A DNA stretch of 64,000 nt, taken from contig JBDRGC010000023.1 of assembly GCA_043818215.1 (NCBI GenBank), positions 1,976 through 65,975 of the forward strand. Direction: 5' to 3'. A program made the position numbers and the translations under genes. Below the pieces are notes generated by a model. That model ran no database searches. It was given only the letters and a program-made list of their open reading frames with translations, and was not told the origin of the DNA. Below, piece after piece: positions 23,719 through 49,615 of this stretch. This DNA comes from Chloroflexota bacterium. GTDB taxonomy: Bacteria; Chloroflexota; Anaerolineae; Anaerolineales; UBA11858. The first letter of the stretch is position 1. Each line of letters opens with the position of its first letter.

Positions 23719-23995
23719 AAAATTCCTTGCCGACTTATTCGGGAACAAGTTTAATGAAATTTCGGCTCTTTGGGATTGTATCGAAAGGGAATTAATGATA
23801 ATATTTTAAATGAGCCATAAAGCATAACCTTTTTCGTTTTCACAGGTCGGGATTGGTTGTTTCTCCTATGAAACCCCTATCTGAGTGAGCCACCGCCGGG
23901 GTTTCATTTGGGGCGTGTGACGGCAAAATGCCGTCATAAGCGGCTCCTTACTGGTGTTCAATCCCGAAAACCATTGAATAACAGGAGACCATACT

Positions 23996-25618
23996 ATGGA
24001 ACCCCATTCAGGTCCGTTTCGTTGGTTCAAGATTTTCACTATTTGTCTCCTATCCCTATTTTTATTCAGTCCGATATTTCAAATTCCTTCCCAGGCCGCG
24101 CCTGAACCATCTCCAGAACAGGCTGTCCAGGCCGTCCAACACGCCTGGGAACTGGCCCAGGAAATCGGGATTTACCACTTCACCACCGATGTGGAGCAGA
24201 CCACATATCCAGCCCCCGCGATTGCCAATGTCGGACGCAGCAGCAGCATCCAAACCTATTATTTAGAGGGGGATGTGGATAGCCCGGCCCAAGCGTTTTA
24301 CATGACCCTGTGGCAGGGAGGCGGCAACGCAGCCACCCAAAAGGACGGGATCGAAATCCGCATGGAGGGTGGTGAAGCCTACGGACGGCCTATCGGCGGT
24401 CTCTGGCAGGAAATCGATGATTTCTCGGGCCTTTTCGCGCCAGGTAGCGACCCGATGGCGTATCTGGCAGGGGCGAAAAATATCACACTCGTTTCAAGCC
24501 ATACACAATACGCATTACGCTATATGTTCGACCTGGACGGCCCGGCCTTCGCGGCCCATATGCGCGATCTGCTTGAAGACCAGCTTCGCCGCTCAGGCGA
24601 ACTACCTCCAGGGTTGAGTCTGGATTCATCCATCCTTTATCGTGAAATGACTGGGCTGGGTGAAATCTGGCTGGATGCCCAGGGTTTGCCGCTGCGCTTG
24701 CTCGTGGACCTGGAAATGCCTGACCCCAAAACCGGGGAGCGAGTCAGCGCCAGGATCAAAACTGATTTTTCCAATTTTGCCCAGCAGCCCGAAACCGCAA
24801 TCGGGTTTATCGCTGAAATCCCCACCTGGGATTGGGGCCTCATCCTGCCCCAGGTTGCATTCTGGGGTCTCTTTTGCAGCGGGATCATCGTATTCGTTCT
24901 TTTCCGCCATTCGCAAAAAGTTTATGCCGCTCTGGTGATTGCACTCATTTTTTCGATGGTGGGCACGCCGCTGCTGCAGAGCGCGCAGGTGGCCGCGTTT
25001 TACGAGACCCAGGAGCAGAAACAACTCGAATTTGAGTCCGCTCAAAATGAACGCGCCGCCAACCAAGAAGCCAGGGATGAGTTGCTTACTTCGAGTTGGG
25101 ATCCGCATCAAAATCCAGTGTTCAGTGATCAGTCTTCAGTCTTCAGTCTCCAGTCTTCAGTCCCCAATCCCCAATCACAAATCTTCAATCTCTCGCGCAG
25201 CATCCCCGACAGGGGGCAATCTCTAATCTCCAATCTCCAAGTCTCGACACCGACCTGGACGGGATTGCCGATGCGGTCGAGCAGGCCCTGGGAACCGAGA
25301 TCAATGACCCGGATACCGATGGTGATACCCTCAACGATGGGGTGGAGTTCTTGCGCCTGGGGACCGATCCGCTCTCCAAAGACAGCGATGGTGACGGGAT
25401 TTTTGATAATGTGGAAGTCACCGGTTTTATGGACGTCAACGGCCTGCACTGGTATTTGGACCCCAACTCGCCTGATACGAACAAGGACAGCCGTATCGAT
25501 ACAGAAGAATGCCATCAACTGGTGGGCCGGAATACTGTTGGCGACCGCAAATGTTCGGATACGGATGGCGACAGCACGCCGGATATTTTTGACCGTGATG
25601 ATGACGGGGATGACGTAG
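23996..25618 (+). CDS. Giant surface protein, segment 1 (signal peptide, globular domain, 2 TM helices); meaningful only to about 25128, then runs out of frame
   Basis: AGGAG lies 7 nt before the ATG. Signal peptide FKIFTICLLSLFLFSPIFQIPSQA. After the heptamer array at 25115 the translation becomes low-complexity, while the next frame carries the TSP3 repeats. Confidence 0.7.
   Translation: MEPHSGPFRWFKIFTICLLSLFLFSPIFQIPSQAAPEPSPEQAVQAVQHAWELAQEIGIYHFTTDVEQTTYPAPAIANVGRSSSIQTYYLEGDVDSPAQAFYMTLWQGGGNAATQKDGIEIRMEGGEAYGRPIGGLWQEIDDFSGLFAPGSDPMAYLAGAKNITLVSSHTQYALRYMFDLDGPAFAAHMRDLLEDQLRRSGELPPGLSLDSSILYREMTGLGEIWLDAQGLPLRLLVDLEMPDPKTGERVSARIKTDFSNFAQQPETAIGFIAEIPTWDWGLILPQVAFWGLFCSGIIVFVLFRHSQKVYAALVIALIFSMVGTPLLQSAQVAAFYETQEQKQLEFESAQNERAANQEARDELLTSSWDPHQNPVFSDQSSVFSLQSSVPNPQSQIFNLSRSIPDRGQSLISNLQVSTPTWTGLPMRSSRPWEPRSMTRIPMVIPSTMGWSSCAWGPIRSPKTAMVTGFLIMWKSPVLWTSTACTGIWTPTRLIRTRTAVSIQKNAINWWAGILLATANVRIRMATARRIFLTVMMTGMT
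25115..25245 (+). repeat. Intragenic array 1: 11 heptamers (TCAGTCT/CCAATCC), a 26-nt core ctcgcgcagcatccccgacagggggc, then 3-4 heptamers (AATCTCC)
   Basis: Hand-indexed. The total is about 128 nt, not a multiple of 3. The break from the frame of 23996 to the frame of 25342 lies here. Confidence 0.85.
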
Positions 25619-28600
25619 CCGACCCGGTTGACATCTACCCAATGGGGATGGTGGATCGAGACGGCCAGCATACTAATGGCAGCAACCCCAATGCGTTTAC
25701 AGATGATCACCCTTTCGAACTCAAGATCGAATCATTGCAAACCGGACTACCGGTCTTCGTTGATTTTCAGCTTCGTCCAGAAAACCCAGACCACCTGACC
25801 TACGCCTTGAATGTCCTGGATTGGCCCAGCGAAGACATCGAGGGCCAGATTCAACATGTCAAACACACGACTTTTGCCAGCGATTTTACCGATGAACAAT
25901 TAACAGGCAATCCCTCCGCGGCCAATGGGGATATGCGCCTGATCCCGATGCTGGAGTTGACGATCTCTGGGGATCATGTTCCTTTTGCCCGCACGAATCC
26001 TGCCATTGATGTGGCAGTCCGCGGGGTAATTTCTGGCACCATTCAACTCGAACAGGCCAGCAGCAACCGGGATAACACCAGCCTCGATTTTTCCTTTGAT
26101 GATCCAGGCCAGGATTACACCGTTAAGATTTACGAGGGCGGTTGTCCTGTCTCAGGCACGCCCGTCAAAACTTACACCAATAGATCGGATGGCGATTCAA
26201 GCACCTGGACTGGCAAAAAAGTCGTTGATTTGGCGAATGGTACTTATGCCCTGACCGTGTCGAATGGCACAGATACCGTTTGTGCTGCGATTGGCAATAT
26301 CATCAACGGCCCTTATATCTACGCCATGATTGATCCGGAACCCCTGCGGCCTTATGGAATCTCGGTTCGGGAGGCCGACCAAAATGGAACCCTGATCGCA
26401 TATATCCCCCTCAACATGGTTCCCGACGAAACCGGGGGCGGGCGAGTAGCCTTCTCGGCCCGGATGGCCTATGAACTGGGAACCGATGCCACCTGGGATC
26501 AGGCCCAGCAGGTCCGCATGGTCTGGATGCTGGAAATGCTGACCGATAGCTGCGATTCGAATGGCTTCGAAGAAGATTGGGCCGCCATGACCCTCAGCGA
26601 CCCCACTTTGGGCATGAAAGCCGGTTCAAAAGACGCCGCCTTCCGCACCTGGTGCAGCCTGCCCGAACACCGCACCCCAGACACCTCTCGGATTGTGCAT
26701 ACTTATGACGATTCCTGGATTCTAACCGGGTTGGCGGTACGGGAAGATCATGGCCTGGATGTGGCCGTGGTTTATGAAGACCCCGCCCAGGGGGATGTGG
26801 CTACCAGCGAAAACCTGTGGCAACTCTCCCGCGGGCTGGCCGCCACCTTCCTGGTGGGCCGTGATTGTGAAGACAACGATGTTACCACTTATCCCGATTA
26901 CGACCCGGATACGGGCAGTTGCAATGATGATACGTATCGCGATATTTCAGTCTACACCAATGGCCCGGATGGGAACACGATCGGGAATACCAATATCTAC
27001 AACCGCTTCGATGCATCCGGCAGCGCGGCCGATGGCGATGACCAGCGCTGGGGCATCCCCAAAGCAGCCTTGCAGGTGGCTCGTTTTCGCTACGACAGCC
27101 AGGATTACGCCACCTATCTGGCGATGACCGAAACCCCGGACATTTTGGAAGCCAACTTCGCCCATACCGACGAACCCACCTTGCTTTTTGCCCGTGAAGA
27201 GCATTACCGCAGCGCCGACCTGGGTGCAGCCTCCAAAAGCGGAAGCGTGTTCACCGTAAATATGGTTTCCAGTAATCAACCGCTGCAAACCGTCACCGGC
27301 CTCAAATGGATGCCTTACGCCTATGATGATGATACCGGCTGGTCGCCTATCCCCATTCGAGAACTTTGGGATGATCTCATCATCCAATATGAAGACACCT
27401 TTGCCCAAACCTACCCGGAGGATACCGAAGCCGCCAACCTGGGGCGGGCCGTGGTGGCCCGTTCTTATTATGTATCCCTGATTCAGGGCCTGGTCCAACA
27501 AGTAGAAATTGGCAGTGACCTGCTCTGGCAACCCGACCTGGAAGGAGAAGCCGACGATTGGGTTTACAGCGTCGAAACTCAATTAGAGTACATCTCATTC
27601 TTTGGTTGGATTTTGGCGGACGTACTCAAGGAGGCCTTTGACACTTATGGAACAAAGTGGCGGTTTATCAACATTAGCGGCTTTTCGGTAGATTCGGGTG
27701 TGCTTAAACCCTGGCAAAGCTTGCTGCCGGTGGAAGAATTTCACGGGGCGCTAGAATCGATTGGCGAGGGGATCAAATCGGCCACCTGGGGGCCGTGGGC
27801 CAGCCTCTTCTCCGGTGGGGTTAAATCCAAAATCGGGGCCGGAATAGCCCTGGCTGGTGCTGTGGCGGTGGTTGGGTTGACGATTTATGGCATCACCCAG
27901 CAGAGCAACGCCCTGGATATCGTCTCGATGGTCATGACAGGCCTGTGGGTCATCCTGGCTATCCAGAATCTAGTCAGCACCGCGGTGCAAGTCATCAAAG
28001 CCGTACAAGAGGCTGGCAGTATGGCGGCCGCGGTCAGCAAAGGCTTATCAGAGGCTACCAGTAATATCAAATCGACCTTCAAAAGCGCCGCGGTCGTCGG
28101 GTTGATCATCAGCGTGGTTGCCACCTGGGCTGCCTTAGGCGCCCAGATTGGCCTGTCGTATGGCCTGGGGGGCGGGATGTCGAGCATTGCCCTGGGGACC
28201 GCCATCGCGGGGGCCATCGCGGCAACTGTGGTCATGGTGATTATGTTCGTTATCGCGGCCATTCCCATCGTGGGACAGATCATCGCCGCTATCATCATGC
28301 TGATCGATGCCGTCGTCAGTCTTTTTTGCACCATCTTTCTGGATGAGGAACAAGCCGAACACCCCGCGGCCGAATGGTTCTGCGGCGGTCTGCAAGGCAT
28401 TGTCACCAAAGCGTTGACCGTGTTGATTTACAGCGGCAATGTGATGGTCGAACTTTACCCCGAAGATTACGACCGGTTAGAGTTTTACGACTTTTTAGCC
28501 GATGATCTGGTTGATCCTGATTTAGGGATTTCAGTGGGGAACAAGGTCAAATACAGCCTCTCGATCACCAACACCATCGATATTGCCCCCTTGCCCGATG

Positions 28601-31600
28601 ATCTCGGAGCGGCCTATCGCTACCAATATAACGATAAACAATTACGCAGTTCTGCTTTCAGTTACGATCTATCGATTACCAATACGGTTGAATTGCACGA
28701 AAATTTAGACCGCTACACCACCACCACCGATTGGGAATACGTGGACGGCGGCAGCGAGGCAGATTGGGGCGATTTCGGCCACACCTGGCACAAAGCTGAA
28801 CCGGTTTACATCAACCGCACCGTCCAGCACCCGGATGGAGTCCCCTTTGAGGTTGCCGGGATCAACCAGAGCGTCCCGCTTTACCTCCTGGAGGGCTGGG
28901 CCGTCCCTTCCCAGAACTGCATCCTGGGGATTTGCACCATCTGGACAGATCGCGGCACCGAAAATTTCAACCTGGGCAGCGGCCTGAAATTCGACGTTTT
29001 CCCGGTCACCCTGGATGAATTCTATACCCTGACATCCAAAGATGGGGGTTACGCTCTCGCCTGGTCACAATCTGGCGATGTCACTTTCCCTCGCCTGGTC
29101 GATGGTGATGGAGACGGCATTCCCTACCCTGTCGATGCCCACGACAATGTTTGGGACAATGACGGCGACGGCCTCTCGGATAGTTTCGAGGTCAAGCTGG
29201 GTTCCAACCCGGATAATAAAGACAGCGACGGGGACGGCCTGCCCGACAACCTGGAATTGATCTCTGAAACCAACCCCCTGCGCACCGACAGCGACGGGGA
29301 TGGATTATCGGATGGTGCAGAAGTCTATCATCAAGATATTACCGATCATGACTCAGATGGCAATTTCACTGAATGGTTGGGGGGCTGGGAATATGGCTAC
29401 AATTTAAAACCCGATGGAACCCTGCAAACCACCTGGGTTTCATCATCCCCAATGAGTACAGACAGTGATGGCGATAGCCTCACAGATTTCCAGGAAAAAA
29501 CCTTTGGATTCAACCCCACCTGGATGTCAAATCCCACTATTTTGACCTTTGAATCCACCATTTCTGAGTCCGATGGGAGCGGCGGTTACACCGATTCGGA
29601 CGGTTTCGCCCTGCCGGGGGATACCCTTTATTACGCCGCCTCCGTGGAGAACGAACTCTACAACCGCTGGGCGCACGGCCTGCTGGATACCGATTTTCCC
29701 GGCGTGCTCGATGATGACGCCATTGACCCTCAACCCTTCCTGCTCTATCCTTTGGAGCAGCAGGTCATCGAGGGTCAGGTGCCCGTGGCGAACACTGCGG
29801 CCTCCGGCGTCTACAACCTGACCCAGACCGCCGGCGCCCTGATCTCCGATTGGGCCGAGCTGGCTTCGGGGGCTGCCCTGTGGTATCCCTTCGAGGATGA
29901 CGCCGCCGCAACCACTTACGCTGACCGCTCCGGGTCGATCCCTCCCGACGACGGCACCTGCTCGAACGCCACTCCGGGGGCGGGCTGCGTCCCCATTAAA
30001 AATGACGGCGTTTATGGCGGAAGCCTCAACTTCGATGGGACTGCCCGCGTTGCCTCAGACTACGATCCTGCGGACAACGCGTTCGCAATTTCATTGTGGT
30101 TCAAAACCACTGAGCCTAATGGCGGCCTGTTAGATACCCAAGGGTTCTGGGATCGCTGGTTGTATCTGTATGGTGGCAACGTCAAGGCCAGAATGTACAA
30201 CGGAGTTTCTCACCAAATCCTGACCAGCGCGCAGACCTACAACGATGGGGATTGGCATCATGTGGTGCATACCTTTGGCGGGTCAGCCGGTGGACAGAAA
30301 CTGTATGTGGACGGGCAGCGGGTCGACAGCGGGAGCTACACCACGGCCAGAGCCAGCACAAACGGGATCCGCCTCGGCTATGCCAATATCAGCGGCATTG
30401 GCTACTTCGACGGCAAAATCGATGATGTTCGACTTTTCGAGCGCGGCCTGACCTTCACAGAAGTGCAGGCAATCTTCGATACGCCCATCCTCGACCTGCG
30501 TTTCAACGAAAGTTCGGGATGGCAGGATTCCTCGCCTTTCGCAAACGATGCCTCTTGCACCGGAACCTGTCCCGATCACGTTGACGGCATCGATGGGCGG
30601 GGGGCCAATTTCAGTGGCAGTCACTATATCACTGTGCCCTCCGATGACAGCCTGAAACTCAACCAGGGCGGCTTTACCATTGGCGTCTGGATTTATCCGA
30701 CCGAATCCCCGGAGTATTGTTACCAGCGTGAGTTTTACAGCCCGCCCTGCGATATCTGGAAACCCCAGCCCCAGGGCATTTTGGGATTCGGCAGCGGGGA
30801 AGACAACGCTTACCCTACCTTACAGCGGGTGGGAAACGCGCTGCGCTTTACCTACGGGGACAAACCCTATTTCACCACCGGCGATGTCCTCCAGCCCAAC
30901 AAATGGAACCATGTGGCCGTGTCCTATGATGGCAGTGCTGTACTCATCTACGTTAACGGTGTGAAAGTCGCCGAAGATTCCACCACCTTCACCACGCCCC
31001 CGCCAGGGACCAAAACCCTGACAGTTGGCCGCAGTGGGACAGCCGGGACCTTCGAAGTCAAGAAAGTTCGCGTTGATGAAGAGGGCGACGGCATCGGGAA
31101 GGCCGAAATGTGTATCGCCTTTCGATCCTACGGCGGTGATTGGCAAACGGTCTTCGACCAGCAGGTGGATGGCGGACTGGTGGATGCATCTTATTTCCCC
31201 CTGCTTTACAATGTCGCCGCTGGCCCCTTCGAGTTCAATACCCTCGCGGATTTACGAGTCTGGGAGGATGATGGCGGGGAACACTGCGTCACGGTTAATA
31301 ATAAAAGTGATTCCGACCCCATAGATGACGGGGATGATGGCATGGGATTCTGGTCATTCCGCACGACGGATGTCAGCAAAGGGTTCGACAAGCTCTATTC
31401 CACCGACCCCACCACGGATCCCTACCGCCACTATGGGTTGATGGGATATTCCGGCGATTCTTCCGGTCATTTCTACATGGTCTACCACAACGACTCGATA
31501 CCCTTCTACGGCAAAATTGATGAGTTGCTGATCTACAACCGCCCCTTCGATGCTGACTCGGTTCTGGATATGTACCAGGCCCAGCGGCTTTCCCTGCACC

Positions 31601-34600: not shown

Positions 34601-37600
34601 GCAGCGATTATTTCTCCGGCCTGATGGATGAGGCGCGTTTCTTCGACCGGGCCATGGACGCCGCCGAAATTAGCGAACTTAATATGGGAGCCAACCCGGT
34701 GCTGCACCTGCCCCTGGACGAATCCTGGGCCAGCAACGGAACGGCCCTCCCAGATCAATCAGGCTGGGCGCATGACGGCTGGCTCTCTGCCGGCATAGGT
34801 GACATGGTCAATAAGGCCGCCCCAGGCGGGGTTGGCCCCTACGCCCTCGATTTCGACGGGAGCGACGACCACATCACCATCCCGGATAGCAACGCCCTGG
34901 ATTTGGAACAGTTCAGCGTTGGGTTGTGGGTCAGGCCGGACACGTGGTCATATTCCGTGGATAACCCCCTGATTCTGAAGGGCAACCAAAGCGGGAATAA
35001 CCTCAACTATGGCATTTATATCACCGCTCAAGGGAAGCTCAGTTTCCGTTTTTATGATGCTTCTTGCACGACCCTGCACGCGGTAGAAGACGGCGTTGCC
35101 CCTCTCCATCAATGGAGCCACATCCTAGCAACTTACGATGGGACACAAGTGAGCATTTATCGAAATGGTCAGGTTGTCAAAACAGAAGCGGTTTCTGGGG
35201 GAGTCTGTCAAAATAATGATCCGGTGTGGATTGGCGAAACCCCAGGTGGGGTGACCACATACGAGGGCCTGATTGACGATGTGATCCTTTACCCGCGAGT
35301 GATTTCTGAACCTGAAGTGGAGAGTCTCTACGCGGCTGGTTGGCAATCGACTACCACAACACCGACAGGGGTCGGGGTGGAACTTTCCGATTGGAACACG
35401 AGCATCCCCGCCGGGCTAGAAGGAACTTTCCGATTAGATTTACGCGGCGAGGACATGAACGCTTTGGTCAGCAAACCCGAGGCGGCTTGGCAGGGCGAGA
35501 TCGACACTCTGGATCCACGAGTGACGCTGGATGCCCAGGTCAGCGGCGACACCGTCCAATACACCACCATCGCCGCCGACTGGAACCTGACCGAAAGTGG
35601 CTATAACACGCCCTGCGGTGCGGGGATCATCGACCAGCGGGAATATTTCGAGTCTCCCTGGTATCAGGCCTTGGGCACTGGCGAGCAGCGTGTTTATCAG
35701 CTAACGACACAATGCGAACACTCCATCGCGGAATTATCCGGCGAAGTTGGGGCCTACGATACCCCCGGACTATCTTATGGCGTTGCCGTCAGTTCCACTC
35801 TGTCGTATATCGCCGATGGGGAGGGTGGTCTGCAAATCGTGGACGTCTCTAACCCCGTTCAGCCCCAATTCGTCGGTTCTCTGGGTGGGATATATCCCTG
35901 GGCCGTGGCAGTCGCACCCGGGGGGGCAGTGTTGATACCTGATCTGATGGTCGACAGCATTGCCGTAGAACCGGCTTCCCCGGAGATCAACCAGGCCTTC
36001 ATCGTCAGTGTGACGGTCCGCAACCAGGGGGCTGGCACGGCCTGGAATTTCACCACTGCAATTTATCAGGATGCCCAACCCGCGGCCTGTGAGGGGTCGA
36101 TCCCCCAATGGACGGCTGCCATCCCGCGGCTGGATGCCGGTCAATCCGCGGTGGTGGCCTTCTCCCACTCCGGGTTTTCGTCTTTCACCCCCCACACCCT
36201 CTACGCCCAGGCGGATTCCGGCTGCATGGTCGCCGAGTCCGACGAAGCGAACAATATCGCCGGCCCGCTGTACATCACCGCTGTCCAATCGGACCTGGTG
36301 GTCGAAAGTTTGAGTTTCGATCCGGTTTCCCCGTTTGAAAACCAGCCCTTCACCATTACCGCGGTGATCTCCAATACGGGCACCGGGGCAGCGGCGACTT
36401 TTAGCACCACGATCTATATTGACCAGGCAATTGGATTCACAGACTGCAACGTTCCTGGCTGGGCTACTATGTCCGTATCATCGTTAGCGGCAGGCACTTC
36501 TACGGAGGTGGTCTTTAACCATTCTGGGCTCTCAGCCACGGGGGATTACGAAGTGATTGCTTATGCCGATTCGGGCTGCGATGTGGCCGAAAGCCAGGAA
36601 CTGAATAACCTTGCCGGCGATTGGGTCACTGTAGTCACAGCACCTAAACCGGATTTACTTATCACGCTTATTACCTCAGAAACCAACTCTCCCATCATCA
36701 ATCAGCCCTTTGTCGTCACTACCACCGTCCACAACCAGGGAACTGCGGCCAGTGGTGCTTTTACAACGACGGTCTTTTTGGACGAACAACCGTTAGCATG
36801 CCCGAATCTGACAGGACAGTTTGATGCCACCCGCATCACCAACCTCGATCCGGGCGAATCGGCCACCATCACATTCACCCATCCTGGGATATCAACGTAT
36901 GGCGGGCACTTTATCACATCTCAGGCTGACAGCCATTGTGAGGTGATTGAATCAATCGAGACCAACAACACTTCCACCAGGCTTAATTTGAACGTAGTTG
37001 ATCCTAACAAGCCAGACTTAACGATAGAAAACATCGTCACCCATCCGATAACCCCCACGATTAACCAATCCTTTATCATCAGTGTAACTTTGAAGAACCA
37101 GGGGCTGGGAATTGCTGTAGATTTCTATGGATACATTATGACTGCCATCTATCAGGATAAAGTACCTTCGAATTGTGATGAAGGTACTCTATGGATCTAT
37201 ACCGGTCCGCTCAACCCTGGTGAAACCAGGATCATTACCAGGACGCTGGCTGGGATATCCACGCCAGGGCCACACCAGTTTTATGCAAATGTCGATTCCG
37301 CATGTGAAATCTCAGAATCTAACGAAGACAATAACATCTTTGGGCCGATCACTGTAACAGCAAGAGCACCCGATCTCATCGTCGAAGAAATCGCCACCCA
37401 ACCCATCACGCCAACAATCAACCAATCTCTGGTGGTCAGTGTCACGATCAAAAATCAGGGGTTGGAGGCAGCTCAAAACTTCGATACAACTTTCTACTTC
37501 GACCATATCCCCTCCCAATGTGATGAGGGCGCGCCGGACTGGTATTTTGCTCATACCGATTACCTGACCGCTGGCGTTTCCACCGTGGTCACAATGACGT

Positions 37601-40449
37601 ATCCCGGTTTCAACAGTACCGGAACGCATCAGATTTACGCTCAGGCGGATGGCGCTTGCCAGGTGACTGAGGCCGACGAGGACAATAATATCTATGGCCC
37701 CCATGATGTTACCGTTTCCAGCTCGGGACCAGCCCCCGACCTGATCATCGAGGCCCTGGATACCCAGCCCGCCGCGCCGGGCGTCAACCAGCCTTTCAGC
37801 ATTACCGTACTCGTCAAGAACCAGGGCTTGCTGGGAACCGGCTCGTTCGACACCGGTGTCTTCATCAACGAGCAGCCCACAGGCGGATGCCATGATATAC
37901 CCTGGGATTACCAGATGATCTCGCTTGCAGCGGGGATCTCGACTACCCTGACGTTCGAACACCCCGGATTGATCGAGGGCGGCCCGAACGACATCTATGC
38001 CATGGCCGATGTATGGTGTACTGAAATAGAATCGAACGAATCCAACAATATCTTCGGCCCAATCACAATCGATGTGGCCGCATTGGATGGAAACCGCCGC
38101 CAGTCCTACGCCGGAGACTTCGCCTGGCCAGGGAAACCCCTCCTGGCGGTTTTCTCTCGGCTGGTATTTCGCCCAGGGTCGGGACAGCCCGTTGCGGGTC
38201 AGGTTGAGCCGTCCATGCAAGCATCAACCCCAACACTAACCAGCGTCTATACGTACACCTACGCTTATATCGCCGATGTCAGCTATGGGCTGAGGATCGT
38301 CGATGTCAGCGATCCGGCTTCCCCTGCACAGGTGGGCGCGCTGCCACTCCCCGGCCCAATGCGGAACATCGTCGTGGCGGGCGATTATGCCTATCTGGTC
38401 AGTCAATTCAACGGGTTATTTGTGGTCGATATCTCCAATCCGGGTTATCCGGGTCTGCTGGATTCTTACGCTACCCCGGGCCACACCGAAGGTCTGGATG
38501 TCAGCGGCGGATACGCCTACGTGGCCGACAGGTTGGCGGGCTTGCAGGTGATCGATGTCAGCGACCCCAACGCCCTGCAATGGAAAGCCGTTTACAACAC
38601 GCCGGGATACGCCTATGGTGTGGATATGGTTGGCGGGTACGCTTATGTAGCCGATGGCAGCGGTGGTTTGCAGGTGCTCGATATCTCGAATCCGTCGAGT
38701 CCCCAGTTTGTGGGAGAACTCGATTCTATATACGCTGTTGACATAGATGTGAACGGCAACACTGCCTATATTGTGACCGGCTCGCAGGGGCTGGCCGTGG
38801 TCGATATCTCCGATCCGGCTAATCCTGAACTCGAACGCTGGTTCAACACCCCCGGTTACGCGCAAGATGTGGTCTTCTCGGGGGAACTGGCCTATATTGC
38901 GGATCAAGACAGCGGGCTGCGGGTGATCAACCCTACCGAACACATACCCGAAGCCACGGCTTGCGACACCGCCGGGCATTGCACCACAGTGGAAATGACT
39001 CACTCCGCGGCCGATTTGGTGCAAGTTGCCCTGGATCGAAATCCGCAGGCCGAGATACATTTCCCATTGGCCGCGCCGCCGCTCTCGGTGGAAATTCTCA
39101 ACCTGCCGTCTGTCCTGGACAGCACCGCTCCCTTCACCATCACCGGCCATGCCACCAGCACCCTGACCACCCTGGAGTTGATCACGGTCACAGTGGATGG
39201 CACGGCGTTGATGGTTACAGGCTGGGTCAGCGGCACGCAAGAGAGTGATTGGAATGCCGGTTGGACTCCCGCCGGGGATGGGCCGCACCTCGTCCGGGCT
39301 GATGTTTTGGGTGCCTATGGCAGCACGGCCAGCGAGACCGTCACGGTGACGGTGGATACCCTGGCGCCAACCGTCAATATCTCACCGACGGTTTACACTA
39401 GTGCGGATTATTACGAGCCGCGCACCATCAACCTGCGCGGGGAGTATGCGGATGCGGGCGGGGTGGCGAGTGTCGAGTGGCGAGTGGCGGATGGCGAGTG
39501 GCGGGTGGCGAGTGGCGAGTGGCGGGTGGCGGGTGGCGAATGGCGGGGGGGCTGGTCGTTGGATGCTGGGCCGCTGCCGGATAATGAGACTTTCACCGTT
39601 TATGCACGCGCCACCGATATCGCCGGACATACTACTGAGATTAGCGAAACCGTCACCGTGGATGTGCTGCCGCCGGAGGCCGTTACCCTGACCCTGACCG
39701 GGAACGGCAGCCCTCTCGCCCCCGGCGAAATCCTGCCAACTGCGGCGGCCAACTTCGTCCTGACCTGGGATGCCAGCAGCGACGGCAGCGGGCTGGACGA
39801 CTATCAAGTCCGCTGGACGACCCAGGTCACGGACACGATCTCGGCGGAATTCACGCACACGGTTCCCACAACCGGCCCGTTGACCTCTGTCTACGCGGCT
39901 GTGGATGGGCAAAAGGTCTCTGTTGAGTTGGGCAGCCGGGATACACTCGGTAACCAGCGCTGGCAGAGTTTCGGCAGCGTGTTTGTGGACAGCCAGCTTG
40001 CGCTAGATTACATCGCCATGAATGTAGGGGATGAGGGTATGTACCGCGGCTGGATGGAGTCAGACTGCACCGATCTGGGGATTGACCGGCGGGCCAACCG
40101 CATTTATGGCAATATCCCCGCACAAGAACTCTTCGCCTCTTGGAATGCGGGAGCTTTGCGTCTGGCCTGGATTGGCGGCAACTGGTACGCCGATGGCGAC
40201 CTGTTCCTCTACCTGGATACAGCCGCAGGCGGTACGAACCAGGTCTATGATCCCTTCGGCGCTACCTACGACATCACCCTGCCCGATGGGATGCTGGCGG
40301 ATTACCTCGTGTGGGTGCAGGACGGGGAGACAGCCAGTTTGCTCCACTGGGAGGGGGGTTGGGTGGTTGCCAGTGATCAGTTACCAGTAAGCAGTTTTCA
40401 GTTTTCAGTGGTCAGTGGTTGGCGGTTACGGATTTGTATTTGCCTTTAG
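25129..40449 (+). CDS. Giant surface protein, segment 2 (TSP3 repeats, TM bundle, 6 LamG, Ig-like, 6 CARDB, LVIVD propeller)
   Basis: The frame is open from 25129 (TGA at 25126-25128). Recognisable sequence starts at 25243 (LDTDLDGIADAVE). The ORF track begins at GTG 25342. There is no SD and no ATG of its own. Confidence 0.75.
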   Translation, partial: SVFSLQSPVFSPQSPITNLQSLAQHPRQGAISNLQSPSLDTDLDGIADAVEQALGTEINDPDTDGDTLNDGVEFLRLGTDPLSKDSDGDGIFDNVEVTGFMDVNGLHWYLDPNSPDTNKDSRIDTEECHQLVGRNTVGDRKCSDTDGDSTPDIFDRDDDGDDVADPVDIYPMGMVDRDGQHTNGSNPNAFTDDHPFELKIESLQTGLPVFVDFQLRPENPDHLTYALNVLDWPSEDIEGQIQHVKHTTFASDFTDEQLTGNPSAANGDMRLIPMLELTISGDHVPFARTNPAIDVAVRGVISGTIQLEQASSNRDNTSLDFSFDDPGQDYTVKIYEGGCPVSGTPVKTYTNRSDGDSSTWTGKKVVDLANGTYALTVSNGTDTVCAAIGNIINGPYIYAMIDPEPLRPYGISVREADQNGTLIAYIPLNMVPDETGGGRVAFSARMAYELGTDATWDQAQQVRMVWMLEMLTDSCDSNGFEEDWAAMTLSDPTLGMKAGSKDAAFRTWCSLPEHRTPDTSRIVHTYDDSWILTGLAVREDHGLDVAVVYEDPAQGDVATSENLWQLSRGLAATFLVGRDCEDNDVTTYPDYDPDTGSCNDDTYRDISVYTNGPDGNTIGNTNIYNRFDASGSAADGDDQRWGIPKAALQVARFRYDSQDYATYLAMTETPDILEANFAHTDEPTLLFAREEHYRSADLGAASKSGSVFTVNMVSSNQPLQTVTGLKWMPYAYDDDTGWSPIPIRELWDDLIIQYEDTFAQTYPEDTEAANLGRAVVARSYYVSLIQGLVQQVEIGSDLLWQPDLEGEADDWVYSVETQLEYISFFGWILADVLKEAFDTYGTKWRFINISGFSVDSGVLKPWQSLLPVEEFHGALESIGEGIKSATWGPWASLFSGGVKSKIGAGIALAGAVAVVGLTIYGITQQSNALDIVSMVMTGLWVILAIQNLVSTAVQVIKAVQEAGSMAAAVSKGLSEATSNIKSTFKSAAVVGLIISVVATWAALGAQIGLSYGLGGGMSSIALGTAIAGAIAATVVMVIMFVIAAIPIVGQIIAAIIMLIDAVVSLFCTIFLDEEQAEHPAAEWFCGGLQGIVTKALTVLIYSGNVMVELYPEDYDRLEFYDFLADDLVDPDLGISVGNKVKYSLSITNTIDIAPLPDDLGAAYRYQYNDKQLRSSAFSYDLSITNTVELHENLDRYTTTTDWEYVDGGSEADWGDFGHTWHKAEPVYINRTVQHPDGVPFEVAGINQSVPLYLLEGWAVPSQNCILGICTIWTDRGTENFNLGSGLKFDVFPVTLDEFYTLTSKDGGYALAWSQSGDVTFPRLVDGDGDGIPYPVDAHDNVWDNDGDGLSDSFEVKLGSNPDNKDSDGDGLPDNLELISETNPLRTDSDGDGLSDGAEVYHQDITDHDSDGNFTEWLGGWEYGYNLKPDGTLQTTWVSSSPMSTDSDGDSLTDFQEKTFGFNPTWMSNPTILTFESTISESDGSGGYTDSDGFALPGDTLYYAASVENELYNRWAHGLLDTDFPGVLDDDAIDPQPFLLYPLEQQVIEGQVPVANTAASGVYNLTQTAGALISDWAELASGAALWYPFEDDAAATTYADRSGSIPPDDGTCSNATPGAGCVPIKNDGVYGGSLNFDGTARVASDYDPADNAFAISLWFKTTEPNGGLLDTQGFWDRWLYLYGGNVKARMYNGVSHQILTSAQTYNDGDWHHVVHTFGGSAGGQKLYVDGQRVDSGSYTTARASTNGIRLGYANISGIGYFDGKIDDVRLFERGLTFTEVQAIFDTPILDLRFNESSGWQDSSPFANDASCTGTCPDHVDGIDGRGANFSGSHYITVPSDDSLKLNQGGFTIGVWIYPTESPEYCYQREFYSPPCDIWKPQPQGILGFGSGEDNAYPTLQRVGNALRFTYGDKPYFTTGDVLQPNKWNHVAVSYDGSAVLIYVNGVKVAEDSTTFTTPPPGTKTLTVGRSGTAGTFEVKKVRVDEEGDGIGKAEMCIAFRSYGGDWQTVFDQQVDGGLVDASYFPLLYNVAAGPFEFNTLADLRVWEDDGGEHCVTVNNKSDSDPIDDGDDGMGFWSFRTTDVSKGFDKLYSTDPTTDPYRHYGLMGYSGDSSGHFYMVYHNDSIPFYGKIDELLIYNRPFDADSVLDMYQAQRLSLHLKFDDPPGETSFVDSSFGHHNASCGGAACPVAGVAGRVNQAAIFDGNDHLTLANSGINRLTNEFSVAAWIRPESVSGYHRILSTARTNSHNGFAFGTYNDGLSFTTFGKKDYALTGLGLVTGKWTHVAAVMDENNAVSFYVNGVFQDIVAGSSPASADTDDALLVGATTDSGSSVRIQTFNGRIDDLYVFSNALSEAGILNLYQNAPAFQLHLDETQSATGFSDDANPSRMVSCTGSHCPQVGFGVDGQLGTAAQFDGVDDYIYTPYSQQTTGDFSISAWVRPTAIRDGQQPIFVHYATSYANFGLFIKPDSMIPQFLAHGCAGGSETVLDSGSALIMNSWNHIVGTYSGGTMTIYINGAPQGSQNWNRCQNPGPFWVGGNVPDTVPFAGQLDEVTLYNHALSRQMIAEIFNYQGKWVQERQSHNIAIDDDNPTVTLETTGDRLPDTDVQMLVIASDPTSGIQSVQFGVQAPGQSSYTWSDAPPCQDAAAETAWCPTFNPAGEGAYSLRAKVTDLVGHISTTDATVYVDNQSPTATFDFTANALLLPTLSDTQPNTWELALSGMISDPDIGSEAGSGVAASSLQVSVFNENGTLVGPAPQPPTLNGDNWSLDYDIAEPYPSGIFTVTLTATDKIVLRAGLDDSQLDRHSLETSRLIQIDATPAAGYLDLGGVTALITDTQTLEGQATERPVHLRVAWNTDAHADQLGLAITCNGLIQHQFQPGTLQPLADSYSWSGDVHRGAACQIHLTDTGGDGGTSGTIEACGEEIADWDASFGGGQVVNFTAVADACGPSLDVAGVAGVETALVSVLPGSPFYNQEPIPGATLHLPFDDVPTANGTLSFRDISGENRNGTCTGIACPTWGQPGHVGRAVSFSGAQWIDSTNFDIDDDFTLSLWINPLATSDGQSFIGKHTYGGSNLIVFGFWNGGYSFRIRSDSYDAGTKTTGWQHLVVVGQKTSATTTLVTVYKDNQLLWQHTLNAVVGNVSGKPWSFGQEWDGNTRSDYFSGLMDEARFFDRAMDAAEISELNMGANPVLHLPLDESWASNGTALPDQSGWAHDGWLSAGIGDMVNKAAPGGVGPYALDFDGSDDHITIPDSNALDLEQFSVGLWVRPDTWSYSVDNPLILKGNQSGNNLNYGIYITAQGKLSFRFYDASCTTLHAVEDGVAPLHQWSHILATYDGTQVSIYRNGQVVKTEAVSGGVCQNNDPVWIGETPGGVTTYEGLIDDVILYPRVISEPEVESLYAAGWQSTTTTPTGVGVELSDWNTSIPAGLEGTFRLDLRGEDMNALVSKPEAAWQGEIDTLDPRVTLDAQVSGDTVQYTTIAADWNLTESGYNTPCGAGIIDQREYFESPWYQALGTGEQRVYQLTTQCEHSIAELSGEVGAYDTPGLSYGVAVSSTLSYIADGEGGLQIVDVSNPVQPQFVGSLGGIYPWAVAVAPGGAVLIPDLMVDSIAVEPASPEINQAFIVSVTVRNQGAGTAWNFTTAIYQDAQPAACEGSIPQWTAAIPRLDAGQSAVVAFSHSGFSSFTPHTLYAQADSGCMVAESDEANNIAGPLYITAVQSDLVVESLSFDPVSPFENQPFTITAVISNTGTGAAATFSTTIYIDQAIGFTDCNVPGWATMSVSSLAAGTSTEVVFNHSGLSATGDYEVIAYADSGCDVAESQELNNLAGDWVTVVTAPKPDLLITLITSETNSPIINQPFVVTTTVHNQGTAASGAFTTTVFLDEQPLACPNLTGQFDATRITNLDPGESATITFTHPGISTYGGHFITSQADSHCEVIESIETNNTSTRLNLNVVDPNKPDLTIENIVTHPITPTINQSFIISVTLKNQGLGIAVDFYGYIMTAIYQDKVPSNCDEGTLWIYTGPLNPGETRIITRTLAGISTPGPHQFYANVDSACEISESNEDNNIFGPITVTARAPDLIVEEIATQPITPTINQSLVVSVTIKNQGLEAAQNFDTTFYFDHIPSQCDEGAPDWYFAHTDYLTAGVSTVVTMTYPGFNSTGTHQIYAQADGACQVTEADEDNNIYGPHDVTVSSSGPAPDLIIEALDTQPAAPGVNQPFSITVLVKNQGLLGTGSFDTGVFINEQPTGGCHDIPWDYQMISLAAGISTTLTFEHPGLIEGGPNDIYAMADVWCTEIESNESNNIFGPITIDVAALDGNRRQSYAGDFAWPGKPLLAVFSRLVFRPGSGQPVAGQVEPSMQASTPTLTSVYTYTYAYIADVSYGLRIVDVSDPASPAQVGALPLPGPMRNIVVAGDYAYLVSQFNGLFVVDISNPGYPGLLDSYATPGHTEGLDVSGGYAYVADRLAGLQVIDVSDPNALQWKAVYNTPGYAYGVDMVGGYAYVADGSGGLQVLDISNPSSPQFVGELDSIYAVDIDVNGNTAYIVTGSQGLAVVDISDPANPELERWFNTPGYAQDVVFSGELAYIADQDSGLRVINPTEHIPEATACDTAGHCTTVEMTHSAADLVQVALDRNPQAEIHFPLAAPPLSVEILNLPSVLDSTAPFTITGHATSTLTTLELITVTVDGTALMVTGWVSGTQESDWNAGWTPAGDGPHLVRADVLGAYGSTASETVTVTVDTLAPTVNISPTVYTSADYYEPRTINLRGEYADAGGVASVEWRVADGEWRVASGEWRVAGGEWRGGWSLDAGPLPDNETFTVYARATDIAGHTTEISETVTVDVLPPEAVTLTLTGNGSPLAPGEILPTAAANFVLTWDASSDGSGLDDYQVRWTTQVTDTISAEFTHTVPTTGPLTSVYAAVDGQKVSVELGSRDTLGNQRWQSFGSVFVDSQLALDYIAMNVGDEGMYRGWMESDCTDLGIDRRANRIYGNIPAQELFASWNAGALRLAWIGGNWYADGDLFLYLDTAAGGTNQVYDPFGATYDITLPDGMLADYLVWVQDGETASLLHWEGGWVVASDQLPVSSFQFSVVSGWRLRICICL
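27830..28345 (+). other. Internal cluster of about 5-6 predicted transmembrane helices in the giant protein
   Basis: IGAGIALAGAVAVVGLTIYGI; LDIVSMVMTGLWVILAIQNLV; AAVVGLIISVVATWAALGAQIGL; IALGTAIAGAIAATVVMVIMFVIAAIPIVGQIIAAIIMLIDAVVSLF. Confidence 0.6.
29095..29520 (+). other. Thrombospondin type-3-like Ca-binding repeats (a second cluster; the first is at 25243-25640)
   Basis: DGDGDGIPYPVD, DNDGDGLSDSFE, DSDGDGLPDNLE, DSDGDGLSDGAE, DSDGDSLTDFQE. Confidence 0.8.
29878..35343 (+). other. Six LamG/ConA-like (Laminin_G_3-type) modules separated by an Ig-like stretch (32870-34030)
   Basis: Each module begins L(H/W)LPxDE... and ends like F.G.IDDVRLF.RAL...E(I/V)..L(Y/F). Example: YFDGKIDDVRLFERGLTFTEVQAIF. 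The second module carries a nested insert of about 150 aa (about 31040-31490). Confidence 0.75.
35938..38080 (+). other. Six tandem CARDB-like modules (about 120 aa each)
   Basis: Starts are PDLMVDSIAVEP, SDLVVESLSFDP, PDLLITLITSE, PDLTIENIVTHP, PDLIVEEIATQP and PDLIIEALDTQP. Each has V.N.G and ES(D/N)E.NN. Confidence 0.8.
38250..38935 (+). other. LVIVD-repeat beta-propeller (6 repeats, plus one isolated repeat near 35790)
   Basis: YAYIADVSYGLRIVDVSDP, YAYLVSQFNGLFVVDISNP, YAYVADRLAGLQVIDVSDP, YAYVADGSGGLQVLDISNP and further repeats. Confidence 0.8.
39461..39544 (+). repeat. Intragenic array 2: 12 heptamers (GAGTGGC/GGGTGGC), 84 nt, in frame
   Basis: Hand-indexed units. Translated as VASVEWRVADGEWRVASGEWRVAGGEW inside an Ig-like region. 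Confidence 0.9.
40371..40426 (+). repeat. Intragenic array 3: 7-8 heptamers (CAGTGAT CAGTTAC CAGTAAG CAGTTTT x2 CAGTGGT x2)
   Basis: Hand-indexed at 49-56 nt. The break between the 25342 frame and the 40419 frame lies here. Confidence 0.85.
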
Positions 40450-43091
40450 ATATGATTGGACTGCACGCCGGGGATAGCTTCAGCCTGCTGGGAATTGCCA
40501 CCGAGAACGATTCGCTCAACATCTGGGCGACTCTGCCAAATGCAAATCCGGTCAACAGCAAAAAGGCCCTGGGGCGATTGTTCACCCTGGACGAAGAGAA
40601 CGACTTCCAACTCAGCCATGCTTACCACTGGGATGCCCTGAGCGCTGGGATTTGCCCGAATGGGAGCATCACACCGGCCGCAGGCGCTTACCTGGATACG
40701 GAGGTGCAGGTCAATCTCTCGGCTGACCCGGCTGGAGCCAGCTTCAACCTGATGGGGGATGGTCTCTTCTGGCTGCAAAACCTGCTTTTGGGCAGTCCGC
40801 CCGCCGATGTGACCACCCAACTGGATTTCCTGGCGGGCGATCAAACCCCGCTCCATCACGAGCAAACCGTCACGTATACCCTCTCTTATCGCAATCGCGG
40901 TTCAGACATAGCTTACGGCGTTTTTGCAAATGTTGAAGCTCTATTTGCCATGACACTGCCGGGCGGGAATTCGGTACCCATCGGAGATATTCCTCCCGGT
41001 GCGGATGGTGAGGTCACTTTCACGGGCGTGGTGGATACCAACATCAGCGCTGAACCCTGGGCAGGGGTAGCCATAGAAATCTTCGACGCCGCCCATCCGG
41101 ATTCGGGGAACCCCATCGAGTGGTTGTGGACCCATCACCGGGTGGACAACACCGGGCCGGAATTCTTCGGCGCCCAGCAGCCGGCCTATCTCCTGGGGCC
41201 AGGGATGAATACCCTGCGAGGTTACGCCTACGATCCTGCCGGGGTCAAGGATCTGACGGTACAGGTTCAGGGCAGCGGCCAGACTTTCGACTGTCCAGAT
41301 TCCACACCAATGGATGGAACCTGGTCGTGTGATTGGGAAGTCAGCGGTCAAAATAACGACCTGTTCACCCTACAACTCCAGGCCACAGATGGCTTCGGCC
41401 TGACCAGCGGCTGGAGTCCGGGACAAACTTTCTTGCTGGATAAGCAGGCCCCCATCGTCACTCTGGATATTAGCGTTACGAGTGTGTTTTCCGGCAGCCT
41501 CGTTCACGGATCACGTTTCACGCTTTACGGGGATGTCGAGGACAACGGCGGATTGGGCCGGGTGGATGTCTGCGTTGATGGGGATTGCCAGCAGGCCGAC
41601 CTGCGCTTGCAGCCTGGTCAGGGAGCGGTGACGGTTGCGGATACCCCCGGGACGCCGGTCGCTATCAATAACGGGACCCCCTGCAATGGTAGCGAGATAC
41701 TGGTCACTTTTGGGGTGGCAGAATCCTTCGCGGTTGGTAACGTCCAACTCGGCTTCGTCGCAGAACACGAGCGGCGGGATGATCTGCGGGTCACTTTGAT
41801 ATCCCCGTTGGGGACGGCTGTCCAGTTGCTGACTGACGATGGCATCTCCGGGACGGATTTCCGGCATGCCGATTTCTGGTTCGCTGATGCCGCCCCCCTT
41901 GATTTCAGCCAGGCACTTGGCGATCACGATCCGGGCGCGCCGGATTATGAACATTTCGCCCGGCCAGACCAGCCTTTGAGCGCGTTTTGGGGCCAGGCAG
42001 CGCAGGGAGATTGGACGCTAGAGATTTGCGACTTGAATCCGAACACGGACGACGGGGCTTACTTGAGCAGCCAGTTGACTTTGATACCTCAAGAAACGCA
42101 TAGCAAATCCGGGCGTTGGTCTCAACAAGTTCAAATTTCAGATACAGATGGCCTAGATTACGTCACCAAAGAGATCAGGGTTTATGGGCAGGATTTGGTC
42201 GGCAACCGCACGGGGAACCCGCTGGCGTTGGATTTGATCATCGACAGTGTGGCGCCGGTCATCACGGTGACAGCGGAAATTACGCAAGGTACGTTGGGTG
42301 ACACGGTTGTGGTGTTGGGCGGAGTTGTGACCGATGGCGGGCCGGCGACGAATCTCAGCGTGCATGTCTACCCGCCGGAAGGAACGCCATACAGCGTTCG
42401 GGCCGCTCGAAATGGGGACGGCTGGGAATTCGAGTTGGACTTCACACTCGTGGGGACGTACACGCTGTGGGTCAATGCCAGCGACCTGGCGGGGAACGCT
42501 GCCACGACCGGGCCGTTCGAAGTGGTTGTCCGACCACCCACACAGGTTTTCTTGCCGTTGGTCTTGAGTAATTCCGCCGCCGGGCAGGGTGTGCATGGCC
42601 CCGATCTGGTCGTCGAGCATATCCTGGTCACCCAAAACAATGTCCAAATTATCATTGCCAACCACGGCAATGCGCCCGTAGCAGACGCCTTCTGGGTTGA
42701 TCTGTATATCGACCCAGACCCGATTCCGACTGCTGTCAACCAGACCTGGGACATGCTGTGCTATGAGGGATTGGCTTGGGGTGTGACCGATGTGTCCTCG
42801 CTGATTCCAGGAGGCACACTTACAATAGACATGAATCACCCCAGCTTCAGGCCGGATTACAGCCTGCTCTATGACGATTTTGATCCGGCGATGGCGATCT
42901 ACGTTCAGGTAGACTCTTATGCCAGCACGACCTACGGCGGGGTTCTGGAAAGCCACGAGGTCGAGGGCACGGCTTATAACAATATTTCTGGGCCGACTTT
43001 CCCCTTGCCCATCAGCCTGGATCAGGATATTCTGCAATTTATGCAATCATCCCCAACACAGGATGAGATCAACTTGCTTCCTGAGCGTTAA
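40377..43091 (+). CDS. Giant surface protein, segment 3 (Ig-like repeats, proprotein-convertase P-domain at about 41702-42090, terminal CARDB-like domain)
   Basis: The frame is open from 40377. The track start is TTG 40419, with no SD. P-domain pattern: GNVQLGFVAEHERRDDLRVTLISPLGTAVQLL...GDWTLEICD. The C-terminal module starts PDLVVEHILV. Confidence 0.75.
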   Translation, partial: SVTSKQFSVFSGQWLAVTDLYLPLDMIGLHAGDSFSLLGIATENDSLNIWATLPNANPVNSKKALGRLFTLDEENDFQLSHAYHWDALSAGICPNGSITPAAGAYLDTEVQVNLSADPAGASFNLMGDGLFWLQNLLLGSPPADVTTQLDFLAGDQTPLHHEQTVTYTLSYRNRGSDIAYGVFANVEALFAMTLPGGNSVPIGDIPPGADGEVTFTGVVDTNISAEPWAGVAIEIFDAAHPDSGNPIEWLWTHHRVDNTGPEFFGAQQPAYLLGPGMNTLRGYAYDPAGVKDLTVQVQGSGQTFDCPDSTPMDGTWSCDWEVSGQNNDLFTLQLQATDGFGLTSGWSPGQTFLLDKQAPIVTLDISVTSVFSGSLVHGSRFTLYGDVEDNGGLGRVDVCVDGDCQQADLRLQPGQGAVTVADTPGTPVAINNGTPCNGSEILVTFGVAESFAVGNVQLGFVAEHERRDDLRVTLISPLGTAVQLLTDDGISGTDFRHADFWFADAAPLDFSQALGDHDPGAPDYEHFARPDQPLSAFWGQAAQGDWTLEICDLNPNTDDGAYLSSQLTLIPQETHSKSGRWSQQVQISDTDGLDYVTKEIRVYGQDLVGNRTGNPLALDLIIDSVAPVITVTAEITQGTLGDTVVVLGGVVTDGGPATNLSVHVYPPEGTPYSVRAARNGDGWEFELDFTLVGTYTLWVNASDLAGNAATTGPFEVVVRPPTQVFLPLVLSNSAAGQGVHGPDLVVEHILVTQNNVQIIIANHGNAPVADAFWVDLYIDPDPIPTAVNQTWDMLCYEGLAWGVTDVSSLIPGGTLTIDMNHPSFRPDYSLLYDDFDPAMAIYVQVDSYASTTYGGVLESHEVEGTAYNNISGPTFPLPISLDQDILQFMQSSPTQDEINLLPER

Positions 43092-43227: not shown

Positions 43228-43276
43228 AAAAAAACCGTCATCGTTATTGGGGAATAACTCTAAAGGATAAACAGCC

Positions 43277-49612: not shown

Positions 49613-49615
49613 CCC

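Follow-up and report, generated by a model that had tools for sequence, protein, structure and literature searches.

The window analyzed here, a stretch of 64,000 nucleotides (nt) of contig JBDRGC010000023.1 (assembly GCA_043818215.1), belongs to an uncultivated Anaerolineae-type Chloroflexota bacterium from groundwater and contains, between positions 23996 and 43091, three contiguous open reading frames (ORFs) on one strand. The evidence below supports reading them as one surface-protein gene of about 19 kb whose frame is broken twice inside 7-base tandem repeats, at junction 1 (J1) and junction 2 (J2). The ORF coordinates, strand and start codons given in the original prediction all proved exact on re-checking. 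The features that define the gene and its reading frames (position modulo 3) are the following.

23983..23987, plus strand: Shine-Dalgarno (SD) sequence AGGAG, in the upstream sequence, 8 nt 5' of the sole credible start, ATG 23996
23996-25618, plus strand: ORF1, ATG start, frame 2
23996..25111, plus strand: segment 1, frame 2, 372 codons
25115..25245, plus strand: J1 heptamer-array linker, from Tandem Repeats Finder and direct reading
25342-40449, plus strand: ORF2, GTG start, frame 1
25243..40377, plus strand: segment 2, frame 1, about 5,045 codons, stop-free
40372..40427, plus strand: J2 array, CAGTNNN x7 (40372-40420) followed by a degenerate TGGCGGT
40419-43091, plus strand: ORF3, TTG start, frame 0
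40428..43091, plus strand: segment 3, frame 0, 887 codons and stop
40447..40449, plus strand: TAG that closes the ORF2 frame 20 nt into the true segment 3 coding sequence

As had been predicted, only ORF1 combines an SD sequence, an ATG and an N-terminal hydrophobic helix; among the candidate starts beyond J1 and J2, none has a preceding SD. Upstream, the ORF2 frame runs open as far as a TGA at 25126-25128, and the ORF3 frame as far as a TGA at 40374-40376. The predicted placement of these stops and junctions on heptamer arrays is borne out, with CAGTNNN-type arrays at both junctions and each TGA lying within a CAGTGAT unit. Internal stops are absent from the 5,107 codons of ORF2, where about 185 would be expected from composition, and from the 890 codons of ORF3 (about 32 expected). 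Heptamer arrays make up 1.46% of the gene, and the chance that two random breaks would both fall in them is P ~2e-4. The predicted size of about 19 kb stands, with the length of the repaired gene corrected from 6,360 to about 6,370 codons. The deposited annotation presents the gene as a 540-amino acid (aa) hypothetical protein, an 883-aa 'P-domain protein' and a middle piece.

The J1 array is composed of CCAGTGT, TCAGTGA, TCAGTCT (three copies), CCAGTCT, TCAGTCC and CCAATCx units, a 25-nt non-repeat core and CAATCTC x4. Repaired queries spanning each junction were built for J1 and J2. The J1 query is matched over 100% of its length, at 95% identity, by a 1,225-aa partial protein (P0001) from another Chloroflexota metagenome-assembled genome (MAG), and the DNA encoding this protein is found in two sister assemblies, GCA_018812425.1 and GCA_018822265.1 (loci L001 and L002). 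These are 99.8-99.9% identical to window positions 22277-27665, from which they differ by 3-4 single-nucleotide polymorphisms (SNPs), all 5' of the gene, and by one added TCAGTCT after 25128. With the four TCAGTCT copies of the sister assemblies, in place of the three in the window, ORF1 and ORF2 are fused, and the array translates as a 45-aa low-complexity linker, NPVFSDQSSVFSLQSPVFSPQSPITNLQSLAQHPRQGAISNLQSPS. This comparison shows that the window has one heptamer unit fewer at J1 than these two assemblies.

Window positions 46370-58954 (12.6 kb) are matched by a further sister contig (L087) with 21 SNPs and a single 1-nt indel, and the approximately nine heptamer or octamer arrays located there are free of such differences; contig look-ups via other array-flanked genes yielded none beyond it. 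Across the roughly 18 kb compared (25 SNPs, about 12 arrays), the J1 unit is the sole repeat-unit change. The variable J1 tract is a perfect repeat of only 21-28 nt, below typical read or k-mer length, and because the other arrays, about nine in number, are the same between assemblies, the J1 difference is unlikely to be an artefact. The same organism was found in SRR2540949, a deep-groundwater biofilm metagenome (PMC5364579).

Beyond the sister assemblies, J1 is spanned in frame by some 60 further homologues at 31-53% identity, so that the predicted continuity of protein sense across J1 is confirmed by both sets of sequences. All homologous proteins among the matches listed have at most about 1,530 aa, though the genome collection does have relatives of 4,000-6,000 aa. 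ORF2 of the window itself (5,035 aa) is not among the listed homologues, and long sister proteins may be invisible to the search. A genome scan, using one genome per GTDB species, returned 222 related loci, of which we kept 80. The J2 position is in frame and stop-free in all 80, and the 10 kb upstream of it are fully open in 48 of the 56 loci with full flank, the frame ending 2-4.5 kb downstream. The repaired J2 query is 98% covered by two proteins, P0122 and P0123. In the orthologue with 53% identity (contig_60858), a J1-type N-terminus and a J2-type C-terminus occur in one same-strand locus of about 18 kb, and its order of Pfam domains (TSP3, LamG, CARDB, LVIVD, P-domain) is that of the window.

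The loci of the genome scan all come from Chloroflexota-titled MAGs, mostly of the Anaerolineae and Anaerolineales; other hosts of the family are Thermoflexales/Thermoflexia, Ardenticatenaceae, Promineifilaceae and Chloroflexia, and several paralogues per genome are common. Orthologues are single ORFs, not three independent genes, the outcome that the original prediction had named as its refutation. These data support a widespread family of giant single-ORF surface proteins of the Anaerolineae, of which the window gene is a member that is out of frame at J1 and J2. The mosaic of modules, which the prediction had taken to be unusual for one polypeptide, is the standard architecture of this family.

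Heptamer arrays are not special to the giant gene. Arrays with a period of 7 or 8 and three or more copies number 33 in the window (0.52 per kb), with many different units and most of them at gene boundaries; the longest is AGCGGGA x28.7, and often two or three different arrays stand side by side. Examples lie at 6604-6669, 8319-8565, 16244-16431, 17349-17549, 18588-18773 and 22180-22277, and further ones at 49014-49614, 55789-55876 and 63476-63533. Outside the giant gene, a pair of arrays, GACCGCC and GCTGTCG, at 15268-15348 (81 nt, or 27 codons) are in frame within an open frame on the minus strand (14497-16251; a 526-585-aa ORF). Inside the giant gene, one further array is read in frame.

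39461..39547, plus strand: GTGGCGA x12, encoding GEWRVAS-type 7-aa repeats (x4) inside an Ig-like module

Two relatives, L004 (3403-3436) and L011 (9295-9326), carry arrays at this same position made of other units (the three loci have GTGGCGA, TGGCAAA and GCAACAC), suggesting repeated local birth or a shared permissive loop. Arrays occur in some of the relatives too. Those within their giant ORFs, about 30, are always in frame and translate as 7-aa repeats such as TQYAIRN and SAIRNPN; their recurrent linker positions relative to J2 are about -1200/-1140, -700, -285, +650 and +3400 nt. At J1, the linkers of 35 orthologues have a lag-7 amino acid periodicity of 0.148, against 0.089 in shuffles (z = 8.2), while other lags are not significant, and in the 53% orthologue (L003) a CCAATCT array located where J1 lies is read in frame. 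Together, these two observations show that the linker just past the N-terminal membrane module is characterized across the family by heptamer arrays that are translated. A literature search found no description of heptamer arrays in giant genes of the Anaerolineae.

Frame breaks close to the 5' end recur in the family as a minority: early stops near J1 occur in a few homologues that lie on long contigs, about 4-6 of 66, and about 60 of the 66 span J1 in frame. The tail of one such protein, P0050, matches the -1 frame of TSP3-coding DNA (E = 3e-10); that of another, P0054, which follows a heptamer-rich linker, has only a suggestive match to the -1 frame (E = 0.02). As a control, the tail of the window's ORF1 matches the +1 frame of orthologue DNA with E = 1e-15. 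Near J2, the approximately 30 in-ORF arrays of the 80 relatives all keep the frame. When every retrieved locus was scanned for long frames that abut, no further array-associated split came up; L011 had been a candidate, and was rejected as its downstream ORF is a separate conserved gene, homology starting past the stop of the giant ORF. Frame splits in long-read assemblies (L054, L055, L080 and L003/L089) are not in arrays, and those of the 53% orthologue (L003/L089) are probably long-read indels. Two other homologues have a different structure. P0023 (75% identical, on a 3.3-kb ENA contig) joins residues 1-280 of the N-terminal module to the fourth LamG and Ig region, skipping about 2,900 aa, and in P0046 the N-terminal module passes, immediately after WDPHRDPL, into a TPR protein. 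These two are either genuine variants, by deletion or fusion, or chimeras of the assembly.

In orthologues, a moderately conserved segment of about 16-21 aa (LSDxQYRFDPxxxxGQ) precedes TDLYLPF; in the window, the J2 array stands in its place. The replacement is nearly equal in length (a 50-nt array), as if CAGTNNN units had overwritten the native sequence. Orthologues are continuous across J2; the predicted continuity of sense there, as read from the window, skips this conserved segment. The frame is restored without stops by one additional unit at either perfect pair (CAGTTTT or CAGTGGT), by the loss of two units or by one added nucleotide. In an AlphaFold2 (AF2) model of the repaired region, the junction (residues 82|83) falls midway through a single beta domain, with per-residue confidence (pLDDT) of 70-89, and a fold search with this model returned only generic tandem Ig-like extracellular modules at low TM-scores. 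Exact-flank, variable-gap scans of JGI metagenome contigs for J2 found nothing, look-ups of the ORF1 and ORF3 proteins (P0003 and P0121) gave no contig on record, and ORF2, under four candidate starts, is absent from the protein collection. Sister and Logan contigs that carry the downstream genes begin at window position 43189 or 43225, past ORF3.

We consider the window copy to be a real slipped-strand frameshift allele, in a null or OFF state, of an Anaerolineae giant-protein gene, and put the probability of this reading at about 0.75. Each break lies in a short 7-nt array within a linker or loop of the protein; as 7 is not divisible by 3, the frame shifts whenever replication slippage adds or removes a single unit. 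The genome copy is one unit short at J1 and would be off by the same phase at J2; we infer that the J2 break arose by the same slippage as that at J1, and that both breaks are genuine alleles of the DNA rather than mistakes of assembly. As written, the product would be a stub of 540 aa, made of 372 native residues and an out-of-frame tail, and with this stub as the only product the copy would be a null or OFF allele. The intact downstream frames (5,107 and 890 stop-free codons) show the broken state to be recent or reversible. As a heptamer-slippage frameshift allele the interruption is a known kind of event, and the gene is an addition to a widespread giant-protein family.

Several points weigh against this reading. 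The interrupted frame may be a consensus artefact from a mixed population. The sister comparison reaches J1 only, and the break at J2 may be fixed, polymorphic or an error; the conserved J2 flanks are 5 aa plus 50 nt apart, where orthologues have about 21 aa, a spacing as compatible with a 1-nt indel as with a 7-nt slip. The J2 array sits in a folded domain and not in a free linker, and because it replaces a moderately conserved segment there, even a frame-restored allele may be impaired. Finally, the bundle of transmembrane (TM) helices within the protein is predicted to have about 4-6 of them, and a membrane topology drawn from that count would be tentative. The broken state may be an instance of phase variation that is adaptive, it may reflect plain loss of function, or it may be an artefact of the consensus.

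The first of these, a sub-case of the slippage reading, would make the gene an evolved contingency locus in which the tracts are kept as slipped-strand switches, J1 turning the protein on or off and J2 truncating it, with the window in the OFF/OFF state. We regard this as possible and hold it only tentatively. The gene has two features of such a locus, namely tandem repeats within the ORF with a unit length that is not a multiple of 3 (7 nt at J1, at 39461-39547 and at J2) and a difference in unit number (three against four TCAGTCT at J1) that toggles the frame between close genomes. That J1 change being the only one in repeat units in about 18 kb, against 25 SNPs, favors it, as do the heptamer-derived linkers at the same 5'-proximal position in 35 orthologues, the further 5'-proximal frame breaks (firm in P0050, suggestive in P0054), the stop-free ORFs beyond the breaks and the proven precedent of a 7-nt repeat within an ORF in neuO (PMC13001214). 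However, OFF states are rare, with about 60 of 66 homologues spanning J1 in frame and none of about 30 arrays near J2 out of frame, unlike neuO, for which approximately 66% of genomes are OFF (PMC13001214). In addition, low slippage rates are predicted from the shortness and degeneracy of the tracts, with 2-4 perfect copies each, and the other arrays are stable between sister assemblies, about nine being unchanged. A wider form of the same idea, that heptamer tracts are a maintained device of the whole family, with a 7-nt linker after the N-terminal membrane module and more tracts at domain boundaries, is likewise doubtful at present. With such a device, populations of filamentous Chloroflexota in the subsurface could turn off their giant surface proteins, or shorten them, in a stochastic manner.

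An assembly or consensus artefact, in which the real ORF is intact, the repeat number was mis-set at J1 and bases were dropped or added at J2, is unlikely. The sequence comes from a MAG, and arrays and dispersed repeats evidently trouble assemblers, as they are frequent end points of sister and Logan contigs (22277, 49063 and 43189-43225); long-read relatives, too, are full of frame breaks (L054, L055, L080 and L003/L089), all of which would fit such an error. However, the breaks of those relatives are not in arrays and both breaks here are, the variable tract is only 21-28 nt long, the difference at J1 is exactly one clean unit, and about nine other arrays within 12.6 kb are the same between independent assemblies.

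Three separately translated genes, possibly coupled by termination-reinitiation and with the arrays as ordinary intergenic spacers, are very improbable. The location of most window arrays at gene boundaries is compatible with this arrangement, as is a frame-0 ATG (40452) located 2 nt after the ORF2 stop (TAG 40447). Against it, orthologues are single ORFs and the sister assemblies fuse ORF1 with ORF2, the internal starts have no SD, segments 2 and 3 would be left without a signal peptide despite their extracellular domains, and J2 splits one predicted domain. Programmed recoding, by -1 frameshifting or ribosomal bypass over the arrays to yield the full-length protein, is hardly credible: both junctions need the same shift, with a J2 gap of 50 nt between conserved flanks, but no usable X XXY YYZ site is present (the sole motif, GGGGGGT at 40353, lies 5' of the frame-0 TGA), and orthologues and sister assemblies are in frame in DNA, leaving no conserved recoding signal.

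Domains of the repaired protein were assigned with Pfam, and the hydrophobic bundle by Kyte-Doolittle hydropathy. The modules are listed in order.

Segment 1, aa 10-32: signal/anchor helix
Segment 1: conserved domain of about 250 aa, without Pfam match
Segment 1, aa 281-330: TM hairpin
End of segment 1: charged helix ending in WDPHQ
25243..25660, plus strand: Asp-rich TSP3-like calcium-binding repeats, directly 3' of the J1 linker, with DxDxDG motifs and a weak match to the CglD TSP3 region
27826..28348, plus strand: hydrophobic bundle, about 4-6 predicted TM helices
29155..29400, plus strand: bacterial TSP3 repeats (PF18884, TSP3_bac) in three stretches, Pfam, end approximate
30061..35319, plus strand: six Laminin_G_3 (ConA-like lectin) modules with Ig-like spacers, Pfam
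35773-35880, plus strand: single LVIVD repeat preceding the CARDB block, Pfam
35938..38060, plus strand: six tandem CARDB modules, Pfam
38200..39000, plus strand: LVIVD beta-propeller repeats, Pfam, boundaries approximate
Segment 3, plus strand: Ig-like modules
41736-42068, plus strand: P_proprotein domain, Pfam
42357-42530, plus strand: Big_13, Pfam
42600-43000, plus strand: weak CARDB-like terminal module, with an in-register BLASTP match to the internal CARDBs (E = 0.004)

Segment 1 is conserved at 31-53% identity in more than 60 homologues. Searches with hidden Markov models matched Laminin_G_3, CARDB, LVIVD (7-8 repeats in total by Pfam), TSP3_bac and P_proprotein, as well as Big_13. The modules predicted from the letters were thus recovered, including the six Laminin_G_3, the six CARDB and the TM bundle, with the exception of the terminal CARDB: the module at 42600-43000 had no Pfam match to CARDB (PF07705) at E <= 0.1, and is CARDB-like at most. 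Approximately 1,600 aa, comprising the N-terminal domain and the region round the TM bundle, matched no Pfam, NCBIfam or PDB family, and a PDB sequence search with the unassigned 1,286 aa gave zero matches.

The product would be a membrane-anchored, mostly extracellular multidomain protein of about 6,370 aa. From its N-terminus it is predicted to comprise a signal/anchor helix, the conserved N-terminal domain, the TM hairpin, the heptamer-encoded linker and TSP3 calcium-binding repeats; these would be followed by about 1,200 unassigned aa including the TM bundle, then six LamG lectin-like and six CARDB modules, and at the end by the LVIVD propeller, Ig-like modules, the P-domain and the CARDB-like module. 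Judged from domain content and context alone, it probably serves in cell-surface adhesion or as a matrix scaffold.

On the 5' side of the giant gene, two overlapping ORFs (22751-23631) look like fragments of a MULE-type transposase (weak PF10551 match in the gene call of the sister contig). Just 3' of the gene there is a dispersed inverted repeat rich in CACGGAT/ATCCGTG (43150-43230, and inverted at 4670-4705), and it is by this repeat, exactly at 43189 and 43225, that sister and Logan contigs end. The next gene (43277-43849) encodes 190 aa with a DUF11/CLIPPER-type match. In relatives (L026 13984-14634, L048, L047 and L069), a conserved gene of about 220 aa is found just 3' of the giant ORFs, and its N-terminal 57 aa or so resemble a segment near the C-terminus of the giant protein.

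Farther downstream, a 181-nt direct repeat (49046-49427; x2.1, 94% identity) is located between octamer arrays, GTCAGCGA/GTCAACGA and ACTCGCCG, and has a GC-rich, hairpin-like core, CCCCCCGAATGAATTCGGGG; no Rfam family was matched over the window. Sister contig L087 diverges from the window at 46370, its last 62 nt (in the region 12585-12710 of L087) matching window positions 50466-50527, and SNPs between the two cluster at 50327-50456 and 46374-46391, a pattern that suggests a repeated element or a local rearrangement between populations. Positions 56001-58000 have a GC content of 0.45, against about 0.55-0.60 nearby, and a GC skew of +0.29; the region spans ORFs 55904-57358 and 57383-58243, which on the sister contig are without Pfam match.

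For annotation, the three ORFs are best treated as one frameshifted giant gene, and further genes in genomes of this kind will be split by heptamer tracts like these. Groundwater populations that are nearly the same differ by one heptamer unit in copy number, a polymorphism that toggles a surface protein of 6,000 aa, and translated heptamer arrays emerge as recurrent linker material across the giant-protein family of the Anaerolineae. A trans-junction peptide such as SLQSPVFSPQSPITNLQ would mark ON cells. If switching is frequent, contingency-locus biology would extend from host-associated pathogens to uncultivated environmental Chloroflexota, and would offer a clue to the purpose of the giant proteins, such as escaping phage or grazers or controlling attachment. 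If the tracts are indeed a maintained device, this would be the first simple-sequence contingency system described in the phylum, with several switches in one 19-kb gene.

Four known systems are closest to the window gene. It shares with Myxococcus CglD and MtsD the bacterial thrombospondin type-3 calcium-binding repeats and a surface or cohesion context; unlike a member of that group, however, its similarity is confined to the repeats, and its scores against the two NCBIfam equivalogs are 27.7 bits (cut-off 400) and 15.8 bits (cut-off 800), respectively. The arrays resemble the STRR heptamers of cyanobacteria, which are likewise dispersed, mostly intergenic tandem 7-nt arrays of filamentous bacteria. 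The CAGT-containing units of the window recall STRR1 and STRR3. Heptamer-derived satellite families and a 14-nt family specific to Chloroflexus have also been described (PMC6749651). Unlike in these cases, the window arrays also occur in frame within linkers that are translated; they are set apart from the STRRs by phylum and by units, and the density is about 0.5 arrays per kb here against 14 satellites per Mb in Chloroflexus, under different thresholds.

The predicted protein is similar to giant bacterial adhesins in its length (>5,000 aa), in its Ig-like, CARDB and lectin-like modules and in its calcium-binding repeats. Such giant surface proteins and adhesins were reportedly treated as 'giant genes' by Reva and Tummler in 2008. 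In contrast to them, the window protein has no RTX, type I secretion system (T1SS) or LPXTG features that we could see, and its anchor appears to be formed by the N-terminal helix, the TM hairpin and the internal TM bundle. Giant genes have been noted as prevalent in the Anaerolineae, a lineage of aggregates and biofilms (PMC10608941).

The nearest parallel in mechanism is neuO of Escherichia coli K1, an O-acetyltransferase gene of prophage CUS-3, in which a 5' heptanucleotide repeat slips and full-length translation needs a repeat number divisible by three (PMC13001214). In both genes tandem 7-nt units lie in the coding sequence, slippage shifts the frame, and arrays that keep the frame encode repeats of 7 aa (PMC13001214). 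The array of neuO is single, long and perfect, lies at the 5' end (3-53 units) and switches often, with about two thirds of genomes in the OFF state; the window gene, by contrast, spans 19 kb and has several arrays, short and degenerate, in its internal linkers, with OFF states that are rare among relatives and a toggling of the frame that is known from the comparison of assemblies.

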